Notes under the pieces: model-generated
The model's database searches: none
What the model was told of the DNA's origin: nothing
The model's input: the letters and a program-made list of their open reading frames with translations, nothing else
From: a virus
DNA length: 64,000 nucleotides
Strand: one strand, 5' to 3'
IMG/VR virus record: IMGVR_UViG_3300028837_001424
Coordinates: 48,592-112,591 of that record
Part shown: piece by piece, positions 18,815 to 48,688 of the stretch
Numbering within the stretch: the stretch's first letter is position 1
Layout of the letters: each line of letters opens with the position of its first letter
Translations under genes and position numbers: made by a program

Positions 18815-19710
18815 GCAAGCGCACAAGGGCAAGAAAGCCAAAACAGGGAAGAGCAAGAAAGAAACAAGGACCAGCGCCGAAAACATTGGTTGATATCTGT
18901 ATGCTGGTCTTTGGTGAGTGGGGGTTACTCTCAAAAGCTATCAGGGCGATTCCGGCTGCAGCCGAGGGGCTGAATGCCAGCTATCGAGTCATAGTCGTCG
19001 ATAATGGCACACCTGATTGGGAGACTGAGGAAAAGGAAATTGTAACGGCCAAGGAACAATCAGCACCAATTAAGGAACTGCTTAGGCCACAGGACATCTT
19101 TTTTAGGCTCGATGAAAACAAGGGCTTCCCCGGTGGTTACAACGTCGCGGTCGGCAAGGGGCGCTCGCCGCTTATTCTCATCTTGACTTCAGACGTTTTC
19201 CTGTTTCCTGGCGCGATTACAAAACTTGTTAGCGTTCTGGACGATCCTGAAGTTGGTATCGCAAGCCCGATGTTGCTCTATCCAGCGGACGAATCTCCCC
19301 ACGGGCCTCCTGGTAGCGTGCAGCATGCCGGCATTGGATTCGATATTCGAGGCGATCCCTATCATATTTTCATGGGTTGGCAGCCAGATCATGAGAAGGT
19401 AAATCAGCGTAGAGAGTTACAAGCGGTTACGGGAGCATGTATTCTAACTCGGCGTGCTTTATGGCAAAGAATAGGCGGCTTCTCTGAGCTTTATAATCAG
19501 GGAACATTTGAGGATATGGAGCTTGCATTTGCCATCCGCCAAATGGGCTACAAAATAATTTTCGAGCCAAGCGCGCGAGGTGAACACTATGTTGGAGGTT
19601 CCATAAAACATGGTGCTATGAGGCCGGGTTTTAATCTCGCATTAAATTCAACAATTTTCCGTGGCCGTTGGGCACCATCTCTGAAATGGGATACTTATCG
19701 ATTTTATTGA
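18811..19710 (+). CDS. Glycosyltransferase family 2
   Basis: VVDNG, NKGFPGGYN, VQHAG, AVTGAC, IGGFSELYNQGTFEDMEL. Confidence 0.85.
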   Translation: MSKRTRARKPKQGRARKKQGPAPKTLVDICMLVFGEWGLLSKAIRAIPAAAEGLNASYRVIVVDNGTPDWETEEKEIVTAKEQSAPIKELLRPQDIFFRLDENKGFPGGYNVAVGKGRSPLILILTSDVFLFPGAITKLVSVLDDPEVGIASPMLLYPADESPHGPPGSVQHAGIGFDIRGDPYHIFMGWQPDHEKVNQRRELQAVTGACILTRRALWQRIGGFSELYNQGTFEDMELAFAIRQMGYKIIFEPSARGEHYVGGSIKHGAMRPGFNLALNSTIFRGRWAPSLKWDTYRFY

Positions 19711-19794
19711 CCCTGCCGTGCCAAGCCCAACCTAACATCGCCAGACCTCGCATCGCCAAGCCGTACTCCGCCGCGAACCGCCTAGCCATGCCTC
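19710..19794 (-). ncRNA. Pentamer guide unit A1: 17 x (NN + GGY-type triplet)
   Basis: Minus: GA ggc AT ggc TA ggc GG ttc GC ggc GG agt AC ggc TT ggc GA tgc GA ggt CT ggc GA tgt TA ggt TG ggc TT ggc AC ggc AG ggt. Confidence 0.8.
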
Positions 19795-19807
19795 GTTTAT
19801 AATTCAT

Positions 19808-19872
19808 TCCTAGCCTCGCCACACCGCACCAAACACTGCGCCACCTAGCCGGACACCGCCCCACCTTGCCCT
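19808..19872 (-). ncRNA. Pentamer guide unit A2: 13 x (NN + GGY-type triplet)
   Basis: Minus: AG ggc AA ggt GG ggc GG tgt CC ggc TA ggt GG cgc AG tgt TT ggt GC ggt GT ggc GA ggc TA gga. Confidence 0.8.
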
Positions 19873-19906
19873 AACTGGGGAGAGTTCTCACATACTCTCC
19901 CCAATT
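19873..19906 (-). other. RNA hairpin immediately 5' of array A
   Basis: Minus AATTGGGGAGAGT-atgtgaga-ACTCTCCCCAGTT, 13-bp stem with one U-G wobble that pairs only on the minus strand. Confidence 0.75.
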
Positions 19907-19910
19907 CGAA

Positions 19911-20507
19911 TCAAAGTATCGAAACTTCGAATCGTCCATATGGCCCGCCCTTTGCAGGACGCCAATCGCCAAGACCTACAGCGTTGCCAGCCAGTTCGAG
20001 CCAGTGGATGAGTCTGTCTTTATCCACAAACTCTTCGTTGTACTGTAGCTCGCCTTCAATACTCCAATCTTCTGGAATAATTGGGCGAGTGCGCATGACG
20101 GTAGCCTGCCCGACACGAACGCCAATGCGGAAGCGGAAGCGTTCATCTTTCCACAGTTCCTTGGGATCTTTAGGACCGTCGTATTGAAGGACATAGTGGT
20201 GGTCACAAAATATACCAACACCTGCTGCCTTTCCTTCCTTCTCCATACGAGCGGCGCTACCCCTGCCAGCCAAGGCCGCCTTTAGTAATCGACCTGGAAT
20301 GACAGGCACTCCGTCATTGATGTATAGCGCACCCATAAACTCAAGGCGCGCCATTTCCTCGAAATCCTTCTCAGTCTTCTTGCGCTGAGAACTCACCTTC
20401 TTGAGCTTTTTTGCCCAAGTATTCAATGGATCTGCTAGCTGTCCATTGTGGAGGATCAGGGGGCTGATCCCCGTCAAACGAAATTTCAGAGTCTTCAGGA
20501 CGTTCAT
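19911..20507 (-). CDS. RAMP/Cas7-like protein 1 (putative guide-RNA-binding, Vipr-like), 198 aa
   Basis: RBS GGAG; N-terminal LKFRLTGISPLILH, central IPGRLLKAAL, RTRP..W, C-terminal Gly-rich loop GLGDWRPAKGGPYGRFEV; flanked by pentamer arrays. Confidence 0.75.
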   Translation of the reverse strand: MNVLKTLKFRLTGISPLILHNGQLADPLNTWAKKLKKVSSQRKKTEKDFEEMARLEFMGALYINDGVPVIPGRLLKAALAGRGSAARMEKEGKAAGVGIFCDHHYVLQYDGPKDPKELWKDERFRFRIGVRVGQATVMRTRPIIPEDWSIEGELQYNEEFVDKDRLIHWLELAGNAVGLGDWRPAKGGPYGRFEVSIL

Positions 20508-20805
20508 CGAACTTCTCCAATATCTTAACCGGCAAGCCCGCTTCCACATTGTCCTCTATTATCGTTTCGGCTCGACGTGAGTATCGAAGCCCTCTGATAT
20601 ATGAGGTGAGAAAGTCGTGGCATCGACGGCAGACGGTTATGAGATCCTCACCGATCTCTTCTCCGTATCTTTCGTATGTCTTATGATGCACCTCCAATTC
20701 TTCTACACAAGGAACTCCTGTTAATTCGGCAATGCCGAATATTTTTGAAAGTTGACATTCGTAGTTATCTCTTTCTAGGATTGCTTTTCTTACTAGGTTA
20801 TCCAT
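20371..20805 (-). CDS. HNH endonuclease overlapping the 5' end of the RAMP gene
   Basis: RBS GGAG; RKAILERDNYECQ...C...LEVHHKTY...EDLITVCRRCH. Confidence 0.8.
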   Translation of the reverse strand: MDNLVRKAILERDNYECQLSKIFGIAELTGVPCVEELEVHHKTYERYGEEIGEDLITVCRRCHDFLTSYIRGLRYSRRAETIIEDNVEAGLPVKILEKFDERPEDSEISFDGDQPPDPPQWTASRSIEYLGKKAQEGEFSAQED

Positions 20806-20826
20806 AATGGACTCCGAATAAAGTAA

Positions 20827-20921
20827 TCCTTGCCTCGCCCTGTCGTGCCGGACCTTGCCAAACCGTACCAGACCGCGCCCAAACATACACTGCCAGATCC
20901 AGCCACGCCTGGCCGCGCCTC
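20827..20921 (-). ncRNA. Pentamer guide unit B1: 19 units
   Basis: Plus: tcc TT gcc TC gcc CT gtc GT gcc GG acc TT gcc AA acc GT acc AG acc GC gcc CA aac AT aca CT gcc AG atc CA gcc AC gcc TG gcc GC gcc TC. Confidence 0.8.
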
Positions 20922-20934
20922 GAATATAATTCCT

Positions 20935-21009
20935 TCCCTGCCATGCCCCGCCGTATCCCACCGCGCCAGATCGTGCCTAGCCGGACTTCGCCACGCCAAA
21001 CCACGCCTT
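20935..21009 (-). ncRNA. Pentamer guide unit B2: 15 units
   Basis: Minus NN series: AA GT TT GT GA CC TA AC CT GC GG AC GG AT AG. Confidence 0.8.
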
Positions 21010-21023
21010 GAACATAATTGCTG

Positions 21024-21098
21024 TCCTTGCCGCGCCCCACCAAACCTCTCCATGCAGCACCAAGCCTGGTCGCGCCAAACCTTAACTTACCGTGCCTC
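21024..21098 (-). ncRNA. Pentamer guide unit B3: 15 units
   Basis: Minus NN series: GA AC AA AA TT GC CA TT GC AT GA TT GG GC AA. Confidence 0.8.
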
Positions 21099-21108
21099 GA
21101 AACCAAAA

Positions 21109-21172
21109 TCCCGCCACCCATTATTCGAGGTTGCCCTACCATGAACAAGCCAAGCTGTAATGGGAAGCGGGA
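21109..21172 (-). other. Structured leader stem-loop 5' of array B
   Basis: Minus TCCCGC-tt-CCCATTA ... TAATGGG-tg-GCGGGA with inner TTGTTC/GGGCAA helix. Confidence 0.65.
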
Positions 21173-21227
21173 GTCTGATCTCGATAAAAACAAAAGGCTT
21201 GGTAGATGTCCATGGCAGGTTAGTAGA

Positions 21228-21256
21228 AGTGTACCATAGCGGGCACAGTATGTCAA
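21228..21256 (-). promoter_or_regulatory. Sigma70-type promoter for the array B-HNH-RAMP1-array A operon
   Basis: TTGACA-17 nt-TACACT. Confidence 0.75.
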
Positions 21257-21311
21257 GACCAATGTATTAATCGTTTAAAACAACCAAATTCCATGATATA
21301 ATTATCTTTGC

Positions 21312-21643
21312 ACTTTACCAAACCAATCGCTTGGTGGCTCGAAGAATACCGTTCTACGGGTTAAAAAAGGCACACACGACAGGTGGCGGTGTGGTTCCAG
21401 GCGATGGGAAGCATAAGGGTCGTGGAGATCGGGCGAATGCGCCGCCTTACCGATCGAGCGCGACATCGTTGGTAGCTCAAAACTACATATCCAGTAGACG
21501 ACGATGTGCGGGCAAGATTCCCGCCAGTGACGTTGATGCTAGCTAGGCCAGTTAGCGGAGTCCTGTGGCCCGAATAATGCGACTGATTGCCGAGAGGTTG
21601 GGAGGATTGGCATCCTCCCCTGAGCGATTGTGTTTGGTGAAGT
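21312..21643 (+). ncRNA. Putative ~330-nt structured non-coding RNA of unknown class
   Basis: Ends pair (ACTTTACCAAACCAATCGCTT / GAGCGATTGTGTTTGGTGAAGT), several internal hairpins, extended -10 TGATATAAT at 21294-21302. Confidence 0.6.
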
Positions 21644-21868
21644 CATCAGAAAGGAAATTGGTAAATTTCATGGTAAAATAGATTTGCGAGCGCGCCTCTT
21701 CATTGGGCTATATTTCCCCTAATGATGAGAACTACTCCTGAGTAGCGCTTAGCTCAGGAGGCTAAGCTGGTAACAGCGGACGCGGTAGCCGGTGCCGCTA
21801 TACACAGAGACCGGCAATCACTTTGTAACAAAGGAGGCCAACATGACGAACCTTTAGTGAGGTGAATC

Positions 21869-22072
21869 ATGTCCAAAATTCAGAAAGGCGGTAAGAAAAA
21901 CCGCAAACATGGCCGTGCAGCGCGCAAGCCCAAAACTGCACGGTATCGTATTTCCAATCGTCGAGCAAAAAATAAAACCAAAAGAGTTCTGCGTAGCAGC
22001 GGCAAAAAGGCTGCAAAACAATACGCGCGGGAACAAAACACAACTGGCTATCTACTCAAATTGCTAAGTTGA
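21869..22072 (+). CDS. Small, very basic (K/R-rich) protein
   Basis: RBS GAGGTG; MSKIQKGGKKNRKHGRAARKPK. Confidence 0.6.
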   Translation: MSKIQKGGKKNRKHGRAARKPKTARYRISNRRAKNKTKRVLRSSGKKAAKQYAREQNTTGYLLKLLS

Positions 22073-22139
22073 ACACTGATATGTAACAACTTATTGCACG
22101 ATAACATATTTTATGTTATTGCGAATTTTAATGTTAATG

Positions 22140-22173
22140 AAAAAGCCCCTAAGCTGGAAGCCAGGGACTTTTT
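22140..22173. terminator. Bidirectional intrinsic terminator
   Basis: AAAAAGCCCCTAAGC-tggaa-GCCAGGGACTTTT between convergent units. Confidence 0.6.
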
Positions 22174-22226
22174 CGTATCGCGCCATTGTGCCACTCCGGC
22201 ACGGTTACATTATATCACAACTGGGC

Positions 22227-22664
22227 TTACTCAGCGACGATTGGCTCAGGGAGCATTTCTCCCATAATGTCGGTTTCTATTTCGGCCAATCTATAAGTAT
22301 CCGTATCAGTAAGATGCTCAAAACCGACTCGGTAATACGTCCGCACGTTTTGATTAAAGCTAACGTAGTCAATCCAGCCGCGAATAACGTAATAATCAAG
22401 AGCGTTAGGCTCATTCTTGTATTCCTTCATGTCACATTCGGACCACTCTTGAAATACTGCTCCCGTCTTATCCCATAGAATATCTTCGATGGTCTTTTGA
22501 GAGCGGCTGCATAGCTGACCCTTAATTGACGGGCCTTGATCACTGGTAGTTGCTTTACCATTTAGTAAATAATGTGCGGAAGTGGCAACGGCATATGCCA
22601 GCAGAATGAGAGTAAAAACGGCAACATATCTTAGACATCCTTTACCGGTCGTATTTTTCTTCAT
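22227..22664 (-). CDS. Hypothetical membrane-anchored protein with its own promoter (moron-like)
   Basis: N-terminal TM segment YVAVFTLILLAYAVA; RBS AAGGA. Confidence 0.6.
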   Translation of the reverse strand: MKKNTTGKGCLRYVAVFTLILLAYAVATSAHYLLNGKATTSDQGPSIKGQLCSRSQKTIEDILWDKTGAVFQEWSECDMKEYKNEPNALDYYVIRGWIDYVSFNQNVRTYYRVGFEHLTDTDTYRLAEIETDIMGEMLPEPIVAE

Positions 22665-22687
22665 GGTATTTATCCTTTACTGTGATT

Positions 22688-22732
22688 ATGCTACCCGATA
22701 CGGTACAGTATGTCAAGTTACCTTGGTACTAT
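22688..22732 (-). promoter_or_regulatory. Promoter with conserved upstream box (copy 1)
   Basis: ATAGTACCAAGGTAAC-TTGACA-17-TAGCAT. Confidence 0.65.
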
Positions 22733-22741
22733 CAATAAATA

Positions 22742-22769
22742 AAGAGGCGGGTATATATACCTGCCTCTT
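22742..22769 (-). terminator. Intrinsic terminator ending the RAMP2 operon
   Basis: Minus AAGAGGCAGGTAT/ATACCCGCCTCTT followed by TATTTATT. Confidence 0.55.
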
Positions 22770-22881
22770 GTGCTGTCTGGCAACCAGACGATCACCCACC
22801 ACTGATTGTCAACTTATAAGTTGTCAAATGATGATGGAATGACAACAAATATGTTATCAACAACTAAAGCTCAATGCGATT

Positions 22882-23076
22882 TTAGATCTCATTGATAAAT
22901 TGTCCAAGTCGTTCAACTTTTTCTTGAACAACACTAAAGTTTTTTGCGACACGAGCAACATCTCCAAAAATCAAGCCCCTATTTGCTTTATCAAGAGCTT
23001 TATTAATGTCTTGATACAAGCTCTTGGCAGTCTCGATGGGTTTGTAATTGGCACAGTTCTCACAAGTTTTGTTCAT
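22882..23076 (-). CDS. Small hypothetical protein (CxxC) downstream of array C
   Basis: RBS GGAGGT; MNKTCENCANY. Confidence 0.55.
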   Translation of the reverse strand: MNKTCENCANYKPIETAKSLYQDINKALDKANRGLIFGDVARVAKNFSVVQEKVERLGQFINEI

Positions 23077-23099
23077 CTTAGTTACCTCCGATGTAAAAA

Positions 23100-23234
23100 G
23101 CTTTGCTATGCTTTGCTCTGCTTTGCTGCGCTCTGCTGCGCTGCGCTTTGCTAAGCTTTGCTGGGCTCGGCTACGCTGCGCTTGGCTGCGCTCCGCTTGG
23201 CTAGGCTCGGCTGCGCTCTGCTGCGCTGCGCTAC
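23100..23234 (-). ncRNA. Pentamer array C: 27 x (NN + AGC)
   Basis: Plus strand GCT-NN 27 times with invariant GCT; begins 5 nt after the RAMP2 stop codon; followed by a T tract on minus. Confidence 0.75.
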
Positions 23235-23239
23235 GACCA

Positions 23240-23878
23240 CTATTCCATTGTTACAGGGTTAGTATCCTTCTCAAGAGTTTGCACAGTCCCGATTTCTTTA
23301 ACTTTCTTCCATTCAACTACTTCAAATGAACCAAAGGTTGGTCTATAGGCACATAGCCCTACGAATATACCGCCACGATTAAACCAATCCTCGGCCTTGG
23401 AAATGCTGAAATACTCATTTTCGTAAATGCTTATATTGAATTTTAATGACCAGGGCAAATCCAAAACGGGACGACTCACATTGACCCTAACTTTTGGGTT
23501 TGGCCTTGCCATTCTTGTATCTATGTAAAATGGAGACTTATTCAAATCTTCGGCGACCTCCAGTTTTACATTGCTTTCTTCGTGTTCTTTTCCATTTTGG
23601 AAAGGAATATATGCGGGTTGCACAGAGATACAACCACGGATCACTGGAGACAAAGTTTTCCACTCTTTGCTATTTACAAACATCCGTAGGCAGGAATGGC
23701 TATCTTTACTCGCCAGAAAGCCTTCGATGCTTGAGCTTGGCAAGCAGACGGTTTTGCCGTCGCGGGGGTCGAGGTAAATTTTTTGCTCGACGGGCGTTTC
23801 GTCCTGCGAGACCCATTTGTCGAACATGATCGGCGTCAGACCGTTTAAGACTACTTGTACTTTCACCATGTTTAGCAT
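23240..23878 (-). CDS. RAMP/Cas7-like protein 2 (Vipr-like), 212 aa
   Basis: VQVVLNGLTPIMFD, LPSSSIEGFL, SRPVLDLPWSLKF, GGIFVGLCAYRPTFGSFEV: same motif order as RAMP1. Confidence 0.7.
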   Translation of the reverse strand: MLNMVKVQVVLNGLTPIMFDKWVSQDETPVEQKIYLDPRDGKTVCLPSSSIEGFLASKDSHSCLRMFVNSKEWKTLSPVIRGCISVQPAYIPFQNGKEHEESNVKLEVAEDLNKSPFYIDTRMARPNPKVRVNVSRPVLDLPWSLKFNISIYENEYFSISKAEDWFNRGGIFVGLCAYRPTFGSFEVVEWKKVKEIGTVQTLEKDTNPVTME

Positions 23879-24236
23879 TGTTCTTGCTCCTTTCGCTTAT
23901 AAAGCGGCGCGACTGGTCAACCAATTCTCGGCGCGCATCACTTATTCTTTCTATTAGAGGTTGCTCTTTTCCTTCCAACCAGTTTATTACGAGCTTTAGA
24001 ATTTCATCATCAAGTTTAAATATCTCCCGATCATCAAAGCAATAAGAAGCCAGTAGGCACTTAAGTTCATCTTCGACTTTCAGGGGTTCATCAACTAGGC
24101 TGGCGTGGCATATTGTTAATTTGCTGTTGGCGGCTAAAAAAGCACGATAGCGCCTATTGAAATCGTCGGCTTTTCCTATTTTGAATAGATTATCAAATCC
24201 GAGGTCAAATAGGTAAACGTAGCCGCTAGACATCAT
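23706..24236 (-). CDS. GIY-YIG family (T5orf172/Mug113-like) nuclease overlapping the 5' end of RAMP2
   Basis: GYVYL....LFKIGK..D..RR...VEDEL...REIF; RBS AAGGAG. Confidence 0.75.
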   Translation of the reverse strand: MMSSGYVYLFDLGFDNLFKIGKADDFNRRYRAFLAANSKLTICHASLVDEPLKVEDELKCLLASYCFDDREIFKLDDEILKLVINWLEGKEQPLIERISDARRELVDQSRRFISERSKNNAKHGESTSSLKRSDADHVRQMGLAGRNARRAKNLPRPPRRQNRLLAKLKHRRLSGE

Positions 24237-24256
24237 TCTCCTTCATTTGTAACTTA

Positions 24257-24285
24257 ATCATATCACATACTTGATTATGAGGCAA
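24257..24285 (-). promoter_or_regulatory. Candidate promoter for GIY-YIG-RAMP2-array C operon
   Basis: TTGCCT-17-TATGAT. Confidence 0.5.
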
Positions 24286-24392
24286 ATTTAAATAGACGGT
24301 GCAAATGCTCTACTAACCCATTACAAAAATGGCTAATATAAAGTCGAATTTGAAGTTTTTTCGTCGCGGCAATTTGTGGAGGGATGTGAGAA

Positions 24393-24707
24393 ATGACCGA
24401 GGAACAAGCAACGCAAGGTCCGAAGCTCGATCCGCGCTACAACCCAGCAGTTGAAAATAGCAAGATCAGGATAGAGTTTTCGGGGAATACCGCGCGCATC
24501 GCCGACGTTGGCTTTTACCAAGTTGATTCGTTTCAACTAATTGCGATTGGCGAGTATTTGAAGCAGCGCGGCCTTCAAATGATTGCAATGACTGAGGCTA
24601 AAGTTGCTCAGGACATGATGCGACGTGCCCAAGCCGAAAAAATAGCAGTCGCCGGACGTATTCCTGAGCCTGACGAGCTACCTGCTAACATGAGGCCACC
24701 TGGCTAG
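24393..24707 (+). CDS. Hypothetical protein
   Basis: RBS GGAGG. Confidence 0.55.
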   Translation: MTEEQATQGPKLDPRYNPAVENSKIRIEFSGNTARIADVGFYQVDSFQLIAIGEYLKQRGLQMIAMTEAKVAQDMMRRAQAEKIAVAGRIPEPDELPANMRPPG

Positions 24708-24744
24708 AGATTTTAGCCTCATAAATTGAATAAAGGATTCGACA

Positions 24745-25449
24745 ATGGCTGTGGATTGGGTTCATTTGGCACCCGTTATCCTGACAGACGATCTTTTCTT
24801 TAGTTATATTGGAGATCCGGTTTATACGGGTACTTCAACCCAGCGCGATGCTGCTTATTTAATAGCCGAGCAGGAAATGATCCAAGAGATCAAGACGCCA
24901 CTCTTGCCCACGTCGATGACAGGCACTTGGAGGTATCCAGGTATTTATGGTAACCCAACCATCGTTCTACCTTATCAAAAGATTAATACTGTAGACAGCG
25001 TTGCAATTCTATATGGTGGTGGTACTGGTGTTTGCGGCCTACAAAGTGTCGCCGGCTGCCATCGGATTAAGAGTGATACATATGGATACATTGATGCTCA
25101 TTGTATAGGCAATCTTGCAATATTAAATTGCGGTTGCACTATTACCGATATGTATCAGGTTCGAGTAGCTTTTACGGCTGGTTTATCAACTGGCATCGCC
25201 GCTGATGACAAGTCATTACACATGGCATTGGCGATGATCGCAGAGCAATATTTAACAGAGATTATCGATCCTGGTGCTAGTCCGGGCGGGCCAGGCGCAC
25301 CTGGCATTGTAGGTTGGTCATCATTGGGGTACAGCGAGAAAATGAATCCGGCTGCATTAAAGTTGACTCCAATGGGGGCTAGTGGAAGGATGAATGCGGT
25401 TAGACGTATGGTCCGGCACCTTAAAAAGAAACGTGCCCTGAGGTTCTGA
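24745..25449 (+). CDS. Putative head-tail adaptor/connector
   Basis: Position before head-closure and neck genes; S.SSLGYSE-type C-terminal motif. Confidence 0.5.
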   Translation: MAVDWVHLAPVILTDDLFFSYIGDPVYTGTSTQRDAAYLIAEQEMIQEIKTPLLPTSMTGTWRYPGIYGNPTIVLPYQKINTVDSVAILYGGGTGVCGLQSVAGCHRIKSDTYGYIDAHCIGNLAILNCGCTITDMYQVRVAFTAGLSTGIAADDKSLHMALAMIAEQYLTEIIDPGASPGGPGAPGIVGWSSLGYSEKMNPAALKLTPMGASGRMNAVRRMVRHLKKKRALRF

Positions 25450-47960: not shown

Positions 47961-48688
47961 TGAATTTCGGTAGTCTATTCTCTGGAGTTGATGGCCTCGG
48001 ATTAGGACTCGAATGGGCTAGTATGACTTGCGCGTGGCAAGTAGAAATAGATGATTGGCGTCGATGGGTACTTGAAATGCACTGGCCAGACGTGCCGAAA
48101 TATGGAGATGTAAGAAATGTCGGACGACACAACCTTGAGCCAGTTGACCTTATTGCTGGCGGATTCCCTTGCCAACCTTACAGTGTTGCCGGGAAGCGAA
48201 GAGGCGCAGAAGATGACCGCAATCTCTGGCCAGAATTTAGCCGAGTTATTAAAGAGATGCAACCAAGATACGTCCTTGCTGAGAACGTTCCTGGAATCAT
48301 CACCACCTATCTCGACACAGTGCTATCTGACTTGGAAAGTCAGGGCTACACCTGCGGGACGTTTAATATTCCAGCTTGTGCCTTCGGCGCACCACATAGA
48401 CGGTATCGCATCTTCGTTGTGGCCTACTCCGGCAGCAAGAGATGGCTATTTGATAAGCCGGATTTCGATAGCGTCTCGAGCAAAGACGTATGGCGAACGC
48501 ATGAACAGAAGCCAATTAGGGGAAGTATTAGCGGGCGATTACGGTTGGGGCCACCACCCAACGTTCAGCGAGTGGATGATGGGTCTGAGTTTGGGATTCA
48601 CCGACTTAGAGCGTTAGGTGACGCAGTCGTGCCACAAGTAGCCGAATGGATTGGTAGAAGGATAATTGAATTTTCGGAGGGCACATGA
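47960..48688 (+). CDS. DNA (cytosine-5) methyltransferase, large polypeptide
   Basis: SLFSG, GGFPCQ, ENVPG, PHRRYR, ALGDAVVP. Confidence 0.9.
   Translation: MNFGSLFSGVDGLGLGLEWASMTCAWQVEIDDWRRWVLEMHWPDVPKYGDVRNVGRHNLEPVDLIAGGFPCQPYSVAGKRRGAEDDRNLWPEFSRVIKEMQPRYVLAENVPGIITTYLDTVLSDLESQGYTCGTFNIPACAFGAPHRRYRIFVVAYSGSKRWLFDKPDFDSVSSKDVWRTHEQKPIRGSISGRLRLGPPPNVQRVDDGSEFGIHRLRALGDAVVPQVAEWIGRRIIEFSEGT
48117..48617 (+). CDS. Nested alternative-frame ORF, probable second subunit of the C5-methyltransferase
   Basis: LWPTPAARD and HPTFSEWMMGLSLGFTD (motif IX-like); the main frame lacks a clear motif IX. Confidence 0.55.
   Translation: MSDDTTLSQLTLLLADSLANLTVLPGSEEAQKMTAISGQNLAELLKRCNQDTSLLRTFLESSPPISTQCYLTWKVRATPAGRLIFQLVPSAHHIDGIASSLWPTPAARDGYLISRISIASRAKTYGERMNRSQLGEVLAGDYGWGHHPTFSEWMMGLSLGFTDLER

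Follow-up and report, generated by a model that had tools for sequence, protein, structure and literature searches.

Two VIPR systems in one phage genome, each with a nuclease-family gene that overlaps vipr out of frame

Results

Locus organization

We analyzed a 64-kb stretch of viral DNA (hereafter the window; positions 48,592 to 112,591 of IMG/VR virus record IMGVR_UViG_3300028837_001424) that forms the end part of a single 112,591-bp contig and whose genes include phage structural, glycosyltransferase and methyltransferase genes. A minus-strand island at 19710-24285, lying between two plus-strand blocks, carries within ~4.6 kb four open reading frames (ORFs), two of nuclease families and two encoding RAMP proteins. 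Together with same-strand arrays of five-base guides, these ORFs make up two VIPR (Viral Interference Programmable Repeat) systems in one phage, here called A and B, each built around a Vipr protein. Their features are as follows.

21228..21256, minus strand: promoter-like site 5' of system A, TTGACA-17 nt-TACACT with TG (consensus scan only)
20812..21098, minus strand: GGY/NN guide (vrRNA) units U1-U3, 5' of the HNH gene (read directly and with an array finder)
20371..20805, minus strand: HNH-family accessory gene (vap-like), 144 amino acids (aa), core residues 1-80, acidic tail 100-144 (Pfam HNH)
20371..20507, minus strand: HNH/vipr-A out-of-frame overlap, 137 nucleotides (nt); the vipr frame is the HNH frame +1
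19911..20507, minus strand: vipr-A, guide-binding RAMP protein, 198 aa (profile match to PDB 36pp)
19710..19878, minus strand: GGY/NN guide units D1 and D2, 3' of vipr-A (array finder and direct reading)
24257..24285, minus strand: promoter-like site 5' of system B (consensus scan only)
23706..24236, minus strand: T5orf172/MUG113 (GIY-YIG superfamily) accessory gene, 176 aa (Pfam, AlphaFold2, VIA-align)
23706..23878, minus strand: T5orf172/vipr-B out-of-frame overlap, 173 nt; the vipr frame is the nuclease frame +1
23240..23878, minus strand: vipr-B, divergent Vipr, 212 aa (hhalign and profile match)
23100..23234, minus strand: one long guide array, 27 NN-AGC pentamers, directly 3' of vipr-B

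An earlier note on this DNA had described both RAMP genes as overlapped out of frame by an upstream endonuclease gene, one by an HNH gene over 137 nt and the other by a GIY-YIG gene over 173 nt, with each RAMP ribosome-binding site inside the nuclease ORF. The four ORFs were verified on the minus strand, as were both overlap lengths and the +1 offset of both RAMP frames, and a Shine-Dalgarno-like motif (GGAGAAG, AAGGAG) precedes each RAMP start within the nuclease ORF. The longest ORF of the first RAMP gene starts at 20549; we took the ATG at 20507 as its start because homologues all align from there, which makes the overlap with the HNH gene 137 nt. The overlap covers the first 46-58 codons of vipr. 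Public protein records of both vipr genes (P0003 and P0121) are shortened at the 5' end, to 161 and 147 aa against 198 and 212, evidently because gene callers avoid the overlap. A survey that relies on calls like these would overlook such Viprs or shorten them.

Assignment of the RAMP genes to Vipr

VIPR systems have been described in preprints of 2026 (10.64898/2026.04.26.720920, 10.64898/2026.04.26.720927, 10.64898/2026.10.15.759431) as RNA-guided DNA-targeting devices related to CRISPR; our comparisons draw on the text of these papers. There, a lone ancestral RAMP protein polymerizes on vrRNAs built of GGY/NN pentamers and recognizes double-stranded DNA via the NN bases, with one base skipped. 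A locus consists of vipr, an accessory vap gene and vrRNA, and seven types are distinguished, some of them with predicted nucleases or helicases (10.64898/2026.04.26.720920).

Both RAMP genes of the window match phrog_4652. A profile of the first RAMP protein and 44 homologues matches PDB 36pp chain D, 'SUSP1 Vipr protein', with an E-value of 4.4e-45, and the profile of the vipr-B family matches the same chain (36pp_D) with an E-value of 4.1e-9; aligned with each other by hhalign, the two families score a probability of 98.3% (E 2e-14). The AlphaFold2 (AF2) model of vipr-A has a predicted local distance difference test (pLDDT) score of 94.5, and Foldseek matches it to Csm3/Cas7 with probability 1.00. 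The characterized Vipr is a RAMP protein that combines an RRM core with a G-loop and a thumb. In the text on the cryo-electron microscopy (cryo-EM) structures, H17, R138 and D177-W178-R179 are the residues that read the fixed triplet in Vipr. The readers of G1, G2 and Y3 in vipr-A are H20, R139/R141 and D181-W182-R183, invariant in 45 homologues. Judged by this homology, both RAMP genes encode Vipr, the lone Cas7-like RAMP of VIPR systems, and the earlier note was right to regard them as guide-binding.

Guide arrays and code

System A has three GGY/NN guides 5' of the HNH gene and two 3' of vipr-A, and system B has 27 NN-AGC units 3' of vipr-B, all on the vipr strand; vipr relatives bear GGY or GGC arrays. 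The guides of system A are parted by a conserved linker, GGA-N3/4-AATTAT-N-[TA][TA]C, at 21026-21010, 20937-20922 and 19810-19795, the former two reading GGA-N3/4-AATTAT-N-TTC. This linker is likely a processing site or a short 3' tail. An Rfam scan of 19000-25000 returned no family, and no hammerhead ribozyme was found between the guides.

Of the 59 B-clade loci, almost all have GGC/NN arrays, and in almost all the G-loop of Vipr reads GLGT[FYW]R. AGC/NN arrays occur in this clade only in the window and in one relative (L095), and here the G-loops depart from that pattern, reading GLCAYRP in vipr-B and GLCNYRP in the relative. The text of the SUSP1 paper reports that a GGY to AGY change abolishes silencing. 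The AGC triplet and the altered G-loop look like a matched change of code and reader. The triplets that the text of 10.64898/2026.10.21.760802 names as non-canonical do not include AGC.

One guide of system A resembles part of vipr itself. The NN code of D1 (19878-19795) agrees with the end of the window's own vipr-A (19952-19918, the KGGPYGRFEV codons) at 18/24 positions, against a unit-shuffle null with a mean of 16.7 and a maximum of 18. Against the vipr of L153 (positions 1218-1252 of that locus), the closest relative found, agreement rises to 20/24, with a null maximum of 19. By these counts, and by a small margin, D1 would fit what has been published on guides that target vipr, namely a better match to rivals than to self.

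The HNH and T5orf172 genes

The HNH gene reaches 22.2 bits with Pfam HNH (cut-off 21.4). Among 45 homologues, residues C17, H40, H41, C59 and H63 never vary and C20 and C62 hardly do. The window's protein has a 15-residue insert in the first zinc knuckle that is common to L033 and L153, and the latter also supports the start of the gene.

The partner of vipr-B matches Pfam T5orf172 with 25.8 bits (cut-off 20); of 25 overlapping upstream ORFs in relatives, 20 match T5orf172/MUG113. Its AF2 model comprises a confidently folded domain (1-90), a helix (94-123) and a basic, disordered tail (125-176). The best structural matches by VIA-align are GIY-YIG nucleases, at modest scores (Slx1, Z 5.6; HIGLE, 5.5; I-TevI, 4.7; UvrC, 4.4), and Foldseek found nothing significant for this model; candidates for the Tyr, Arg and Glu of a GIY-YIG active site are present in the sequence. 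The label GIY-YIG given by the earlier note appears to hold at the level of the superfamily, whereas the family match is T5orf172/MUG113, for which nuclease activity is not established. No separate DNA-binding domain is seen in the T5orf172 model, nor by Pfam in either nuclease-family protein.

Conservation of the nuclease-vipr pairing

To follow the pairing across relatives, we retrieved IMG/VR loci of both families (80 for vipr-A, 68 for vipr-B), all from viral contigs, and scored 67 and 59 non-redundant loci, respectively. Nucleases were scored with hidden Markov models (HMMs) of the core domains only, because any vipr 5' end encodes the overprinted tail in that frame. An apparent occurrence of T5orf172 in 5/7 bacterial-genome loci was discarded, as the matches came from an HMM that included the tail and vanished with the core-domain HMM.

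An HNH core ORF lies directly upstream of vipr in 55/67 loci of the A family and overlaps it in all 55, by 41-296 nt (mode ~140). A T5orf172 core ORF is directly upstream in 22/59 loci of the B family and again overlaps vipr in all 22, by 173-290 nt. Every one of these overlaps is in frame +1. The two Vipr families are deep sister clades separated by branches with support of 100. Mapped onto the Vipr tree, the HNH label requires 9 changes (~41 under shuffling) and the T5orf172 label 3 (~20 under shuffling). Distances between nucleases, computed from the non-overlapped part, correlate with Vipr distances (Mantel r 0.39 for HNH and 0.90 for T5orf172, both p 0.001). The relatives' Vipr proteins are only 23-51% identical to those of the window; L153, with a Vipr 84% identical, has the same HNH gene with the same stop position. 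No further nuclease copies were found elsewhere in the fetched loci.

The pairing and its overlap are conserved and clade-specific, and the nucleases are fixed partners of vipr. Sporadic homing endonucleases, which the earlier note had offered as an alternative, are unlikely given an overlap in all nuclease-bearing loci, always in the same +1 frame, and co-varying distances. A separate deep Vipr clade goes with each nuclease family, and this pattern, as read from the trees and distances, fits two separate recruitments of dedicated partners, as the note had proposed.

Two further observations concern the B clade. In 23/37 of the loci that have no T5orf172 (among L085-L149), the +1 frame is open for at least 176 nt into vipr, and most of these long-open ORFs start no more than ~60 codons upstream, leaving no space for a nuclease domain. 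They may be what is left of lost partners, may form a small overlapping gene or may result from composition. Whether or not they carry T5orf172, many B-clade loci contain a further gene, of 91-237 aa, that overlaps the vipr stop by 10 nt (L125, L126, L132-L134, L136, L148 and L152 among them). It is absent from the window and is possibly a second accessory gene.

Sequence constraint in the overlaps

Several features of the HNH clade bear on whether the overlapped tail is itself selected. The vipr codon for His20 is CAC in 55/55 HNH-bearing loci and in 9/12 HNH-less ones (Fisher p 0.0046); CAT at this position would write TAA in the HNH frame. Beyond this codon, the median open stretch of the nuclease frame is 28 codons, compared with 9.5 where HNH is missing (p 0.037); in the third frame, stops intervene after a median of 8 codons. 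Fewer synonymous differences are found in vipr codons within the overlap, both in HNH loci (0.278 vs 0.381; odds ratio (OR) 0.62, p 8.5e-5) and in T5orf172 loci (OR 0.36, p 3e-11). These comparisons of sequences lend modest support to selection on the HNH tail itself.

Other observations limit what can be read into this. Vipr codons dictate the conserved motifs of the tails: AQR/W..RP and HVR are what the invariant Vipr motifs HNGQLADP and PIMFD give when read in frame +1. Between the window and L153, the HNH core is better conserved than the tail. In charge the two tails are opposite, with 13 D/E and 4 K/R in the HNH protein and 16 K/R and 4 D/E in the T5orf172 protein, and the latter tail is predicted to be disordered (pLDDT <55).

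Other features of the island

The promoter-like 16-mer CTTGACATACTGT[GA]CC (minus strand) is present at 21242-21257, ahead of system A, and again at 22702-22717, where it precedes a gene for a 145-aa protein with a hydrophobic N-terminus (22664-22227). Between the two systems, on the opposite strand, there is a 67-aa, very basic (Lys/Arg-rich) ORF (21869-22072, plus strand).

Discussion

The interpretation that we favor, and consider fairly probable, is that the island carries two VIPR systems whose clade-specific nuclease partners, interlocked with vipr, cut guide-bound DNA, with the overlap serving mainly as a hard link. By analogy with the published work on type II VIPR, Vipr would polymerize on the guide RNA and the filament would find double-stranded DNA by gapped NN-x pairing. 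The partner nuclease might then cut the bound rival DNA rather than just silence it. This last step, guide-directed cutting, we infer from the text of the VIPR preprints, which predicts target destruction for the nuclease-bearing types. Translation of Vipr most likely relies on a separate ribosome-binding site within the nuclease ORF; in the HNH clade, 49/55 vipr starts have an SD-like motif of their own (SD, Shine-Dalgarno). As a hard link, the overlap would mean that neither gene can be exchanged or deleted alone and that both are co-transcribed; a frameshift fusion device is less likely to be its purpose. If this interpretation is correct, a phage-borne VIPR would destroy rival DNA instead of just silencing it. 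More tentatively, the +1 overprinting might be a functional coupling in which the tail or the overlap recruits or licenses the nuclease on the Vipr filament, so that the phage would hold two orthogonal systems, each Vipr reading only its own triplet (GGY or AGC) and bringing only its own nuclease.

A number of observations weigh against the favored interpretation. The preprints, in their text, tie nuclease-bearing types to cellular defense islands, unlike this phage genome. Guide targets sought in the phage's own genome gave no match above unit-shuffled nulls, among the 153 fetched loci only D1 against L153 stands out, and three exact gapped guide patterns had 0 matches in IMG/VR. T5orf172 is without proven catalytic activity, and its structural matches to GIY-YIG proteins reach only Z 4.4-5.6. 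As for the tails, the control for the HNH synonymous comparison (OR 0.62) is one pair only. In the B clade the nuclease frame is equally open without T5orf172 (median 54 vs 54 codons, p 0.2), and the synonymous dip is also seen in T5orf172-less loci, where it is weaker (OR 0.67). Selection on the T5orf172 tail is therefore not demonstrated, and the sequence signal for it is best called ambiguous.

The main rival to a cutting role is that the partners are dedicated VIPR proteins that do not cut targets and instead process the multi-guide transcript at its linkers, or act as DNA-binding helpers like SUSP1 Vap1. We think this possible, though on the whole unlikely. Something must cut the conserved linker between the five guides of system A, type II Vap1 is a predicted DNA binder needed for function, and the catalytic competence of T5orf172 is unproven; but system B keeps its partner though it has a single guide, and the HNH protein keeps its catalytic and zinc ligands throughout the 45 homologues. 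That enzymes of the HNH and GIY-YIG kinds typically act as DNases also speaks against such a role. So does the target destruction predicted in the text of the VIPR papers. A further idea, compatible with target cutting by the partners, gives the overlapped C-terminal tails a function of their own, either as docking peptides, which the earlier note had raised, holding the nuclease to the Vipr filament, or as a gate on its activity; the overlap would then be conserved on that account. In all 55 and all 22 nuclease-bearing loci the nuclease frame does run far into vipr without a stop, CAT, which would create a stop, is avoided in 55/55 HNH-bearing loci, the drop in synonymous rates within the overlap is strongest with the T5orf172 domain, and the window and L153 have a common stop position. 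Yet the conserved motifs of the tails are a +1 reading of Vipr motifs, the HNH tail is less conserved than its core, the two tails carry opposite charges, that of T5orf172 is of low pLDDT, overlap length ranges from 41 to 296 nt, and loci without T5orf172 hold the same frame open. The docking idea has thus gained little and we rate it as doubtful.

The same note had also considered nuclease-RAMP fusions made by frameshifting. A +1 ribosomal frameshift near the vipr start, yielding a minor nuclease-Vipr fusion that seeds nuclease into the filament, would account for the +1 relation of the frames in 77/77 nuclease-bearing loci and would explain a sub-stoichiometric nuclease. We nevertheless regard it as highly improbable. 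There is no fused homologue among 196 near-length matches and no Vipr fusion in a search of proteins of at least 395 residues (the latter being weak evidence), and no conserved slip motif is visible upstream of vipr starts. Upstream of its own start, the vipr frame is closed after a median of 15 (HNH) or 9 (T5orf172) codons, and in many loci already 1-7 codons before the start; Vipr also has the start signals of its own described above. The constancy of the frame itself may have a simpler origin in the HNH clade, where stops block the third frame and +1 may be the sole frame available. We also consider it very unlikely that the nuclease genes are selfish, free-standing homing endonucleases that inserted at the 5' end of vipr and play no part in VIPR. 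HNH and GIY-YIG-type genes are the commonest phage homing endonucleases, and T5orf172 is present in only 22/59 loci of its clade. Against this, the genes keep the same position, orientation and frame in 55/67 and 22/22 loci whose Viprs are 23-51% identical to the window's, their labels cluster when mapped on the Vipr tree, nuclease distances co-vary with those of Vipr and no extra copies lie elsewhere in the loci. The proteins are also small, and the separate DNA-binding domain carried by homing enzymes is missing from the T5orf172 model and from the Pfam matches.

The role of nuclease-type accessory genes is named as an open question in the text of the cryo-EM preprint, and only the silencing type II VIPR has been examined experimentally so far. 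The phage provides two compact natural test cases within ~4.6 kb, an HNH gene with GGY guides and a T5orf172 gene with an AGC guide. The overlap is also a genetic handle, since one change that is synonymous in vipr can truncate the nuclease tail and leave Vipr untouched.

Comparison with known systems

The partner genes resemble phage homing endonucleases such as I-TevI and the Seg and Mob enzymes of T4 in belonging to the same superfamilies and in being small genes wedged beside a conserved phage gene. They differ in having no DNA-binding extension and in their clade-wide, co-diverging distribution. The arrangement is also like that of class 1 CRISPR-Cas systems, in which a Cas7 backbone works with Cas3 or the HD domain of Cas10, in that a RAMP filament on a guide RNA would be joined by a separate nuclease, the recruitment here being our inference. 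It is unlike them in having no CRISPR array, adaptation genes, Cas5, Cas6 or large subunit and no protospacer adjacent motif (PAM), and in using a five-base code with gapped pairing.

VIPR with nuclease accessory genes is an already known kind. As described in the text of 10.64898/2026.04.26.720920, the nuclease-bearing types III and V share with both systems here a Vipr RAMP that stands alone, arrays of GGY/NN type and an accessory gene for a small predicted nuclease, and they too occur in single-guide and multi-guide architectures; an HNH-domain Vap appears in fig. S21 of that preprint. Types III and V are mainly found in cellular defense islands and are antiviral, whereas both systems here, likened to them by text description, are in a phage genome. 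In the text of the VIPR papers, the figures and data tables lying outside this search, we found no vap-vipr overlap, no T5orf172/GIY-YIG partner and no AGC fixed triplet, nor, in the same text, two systems with different fixed triplets in one phage.

The only experimentally characterized systems are of type II, from Escherichia phage SUSP1 (PDB 36pp) and a Pseudomonas fulva prophage. Type II silences transcription, and its DNA-binding vap1 is located downstream of vipr. In the window, each partner lies upstream and belongs to a nuclease family, the overlap with vipr is 137-173 nt, and there is no downstream vap. In other respects the likeness is close: vipr-A is a clear homologue (E 4.4e-45) with the G1, G2 and Y3 readers, GGY/NN guides lie on both sides of the genes and, like the guides reported for SUSP1-like phages, one guide here appears to be aimed at the vipr of close relatives.

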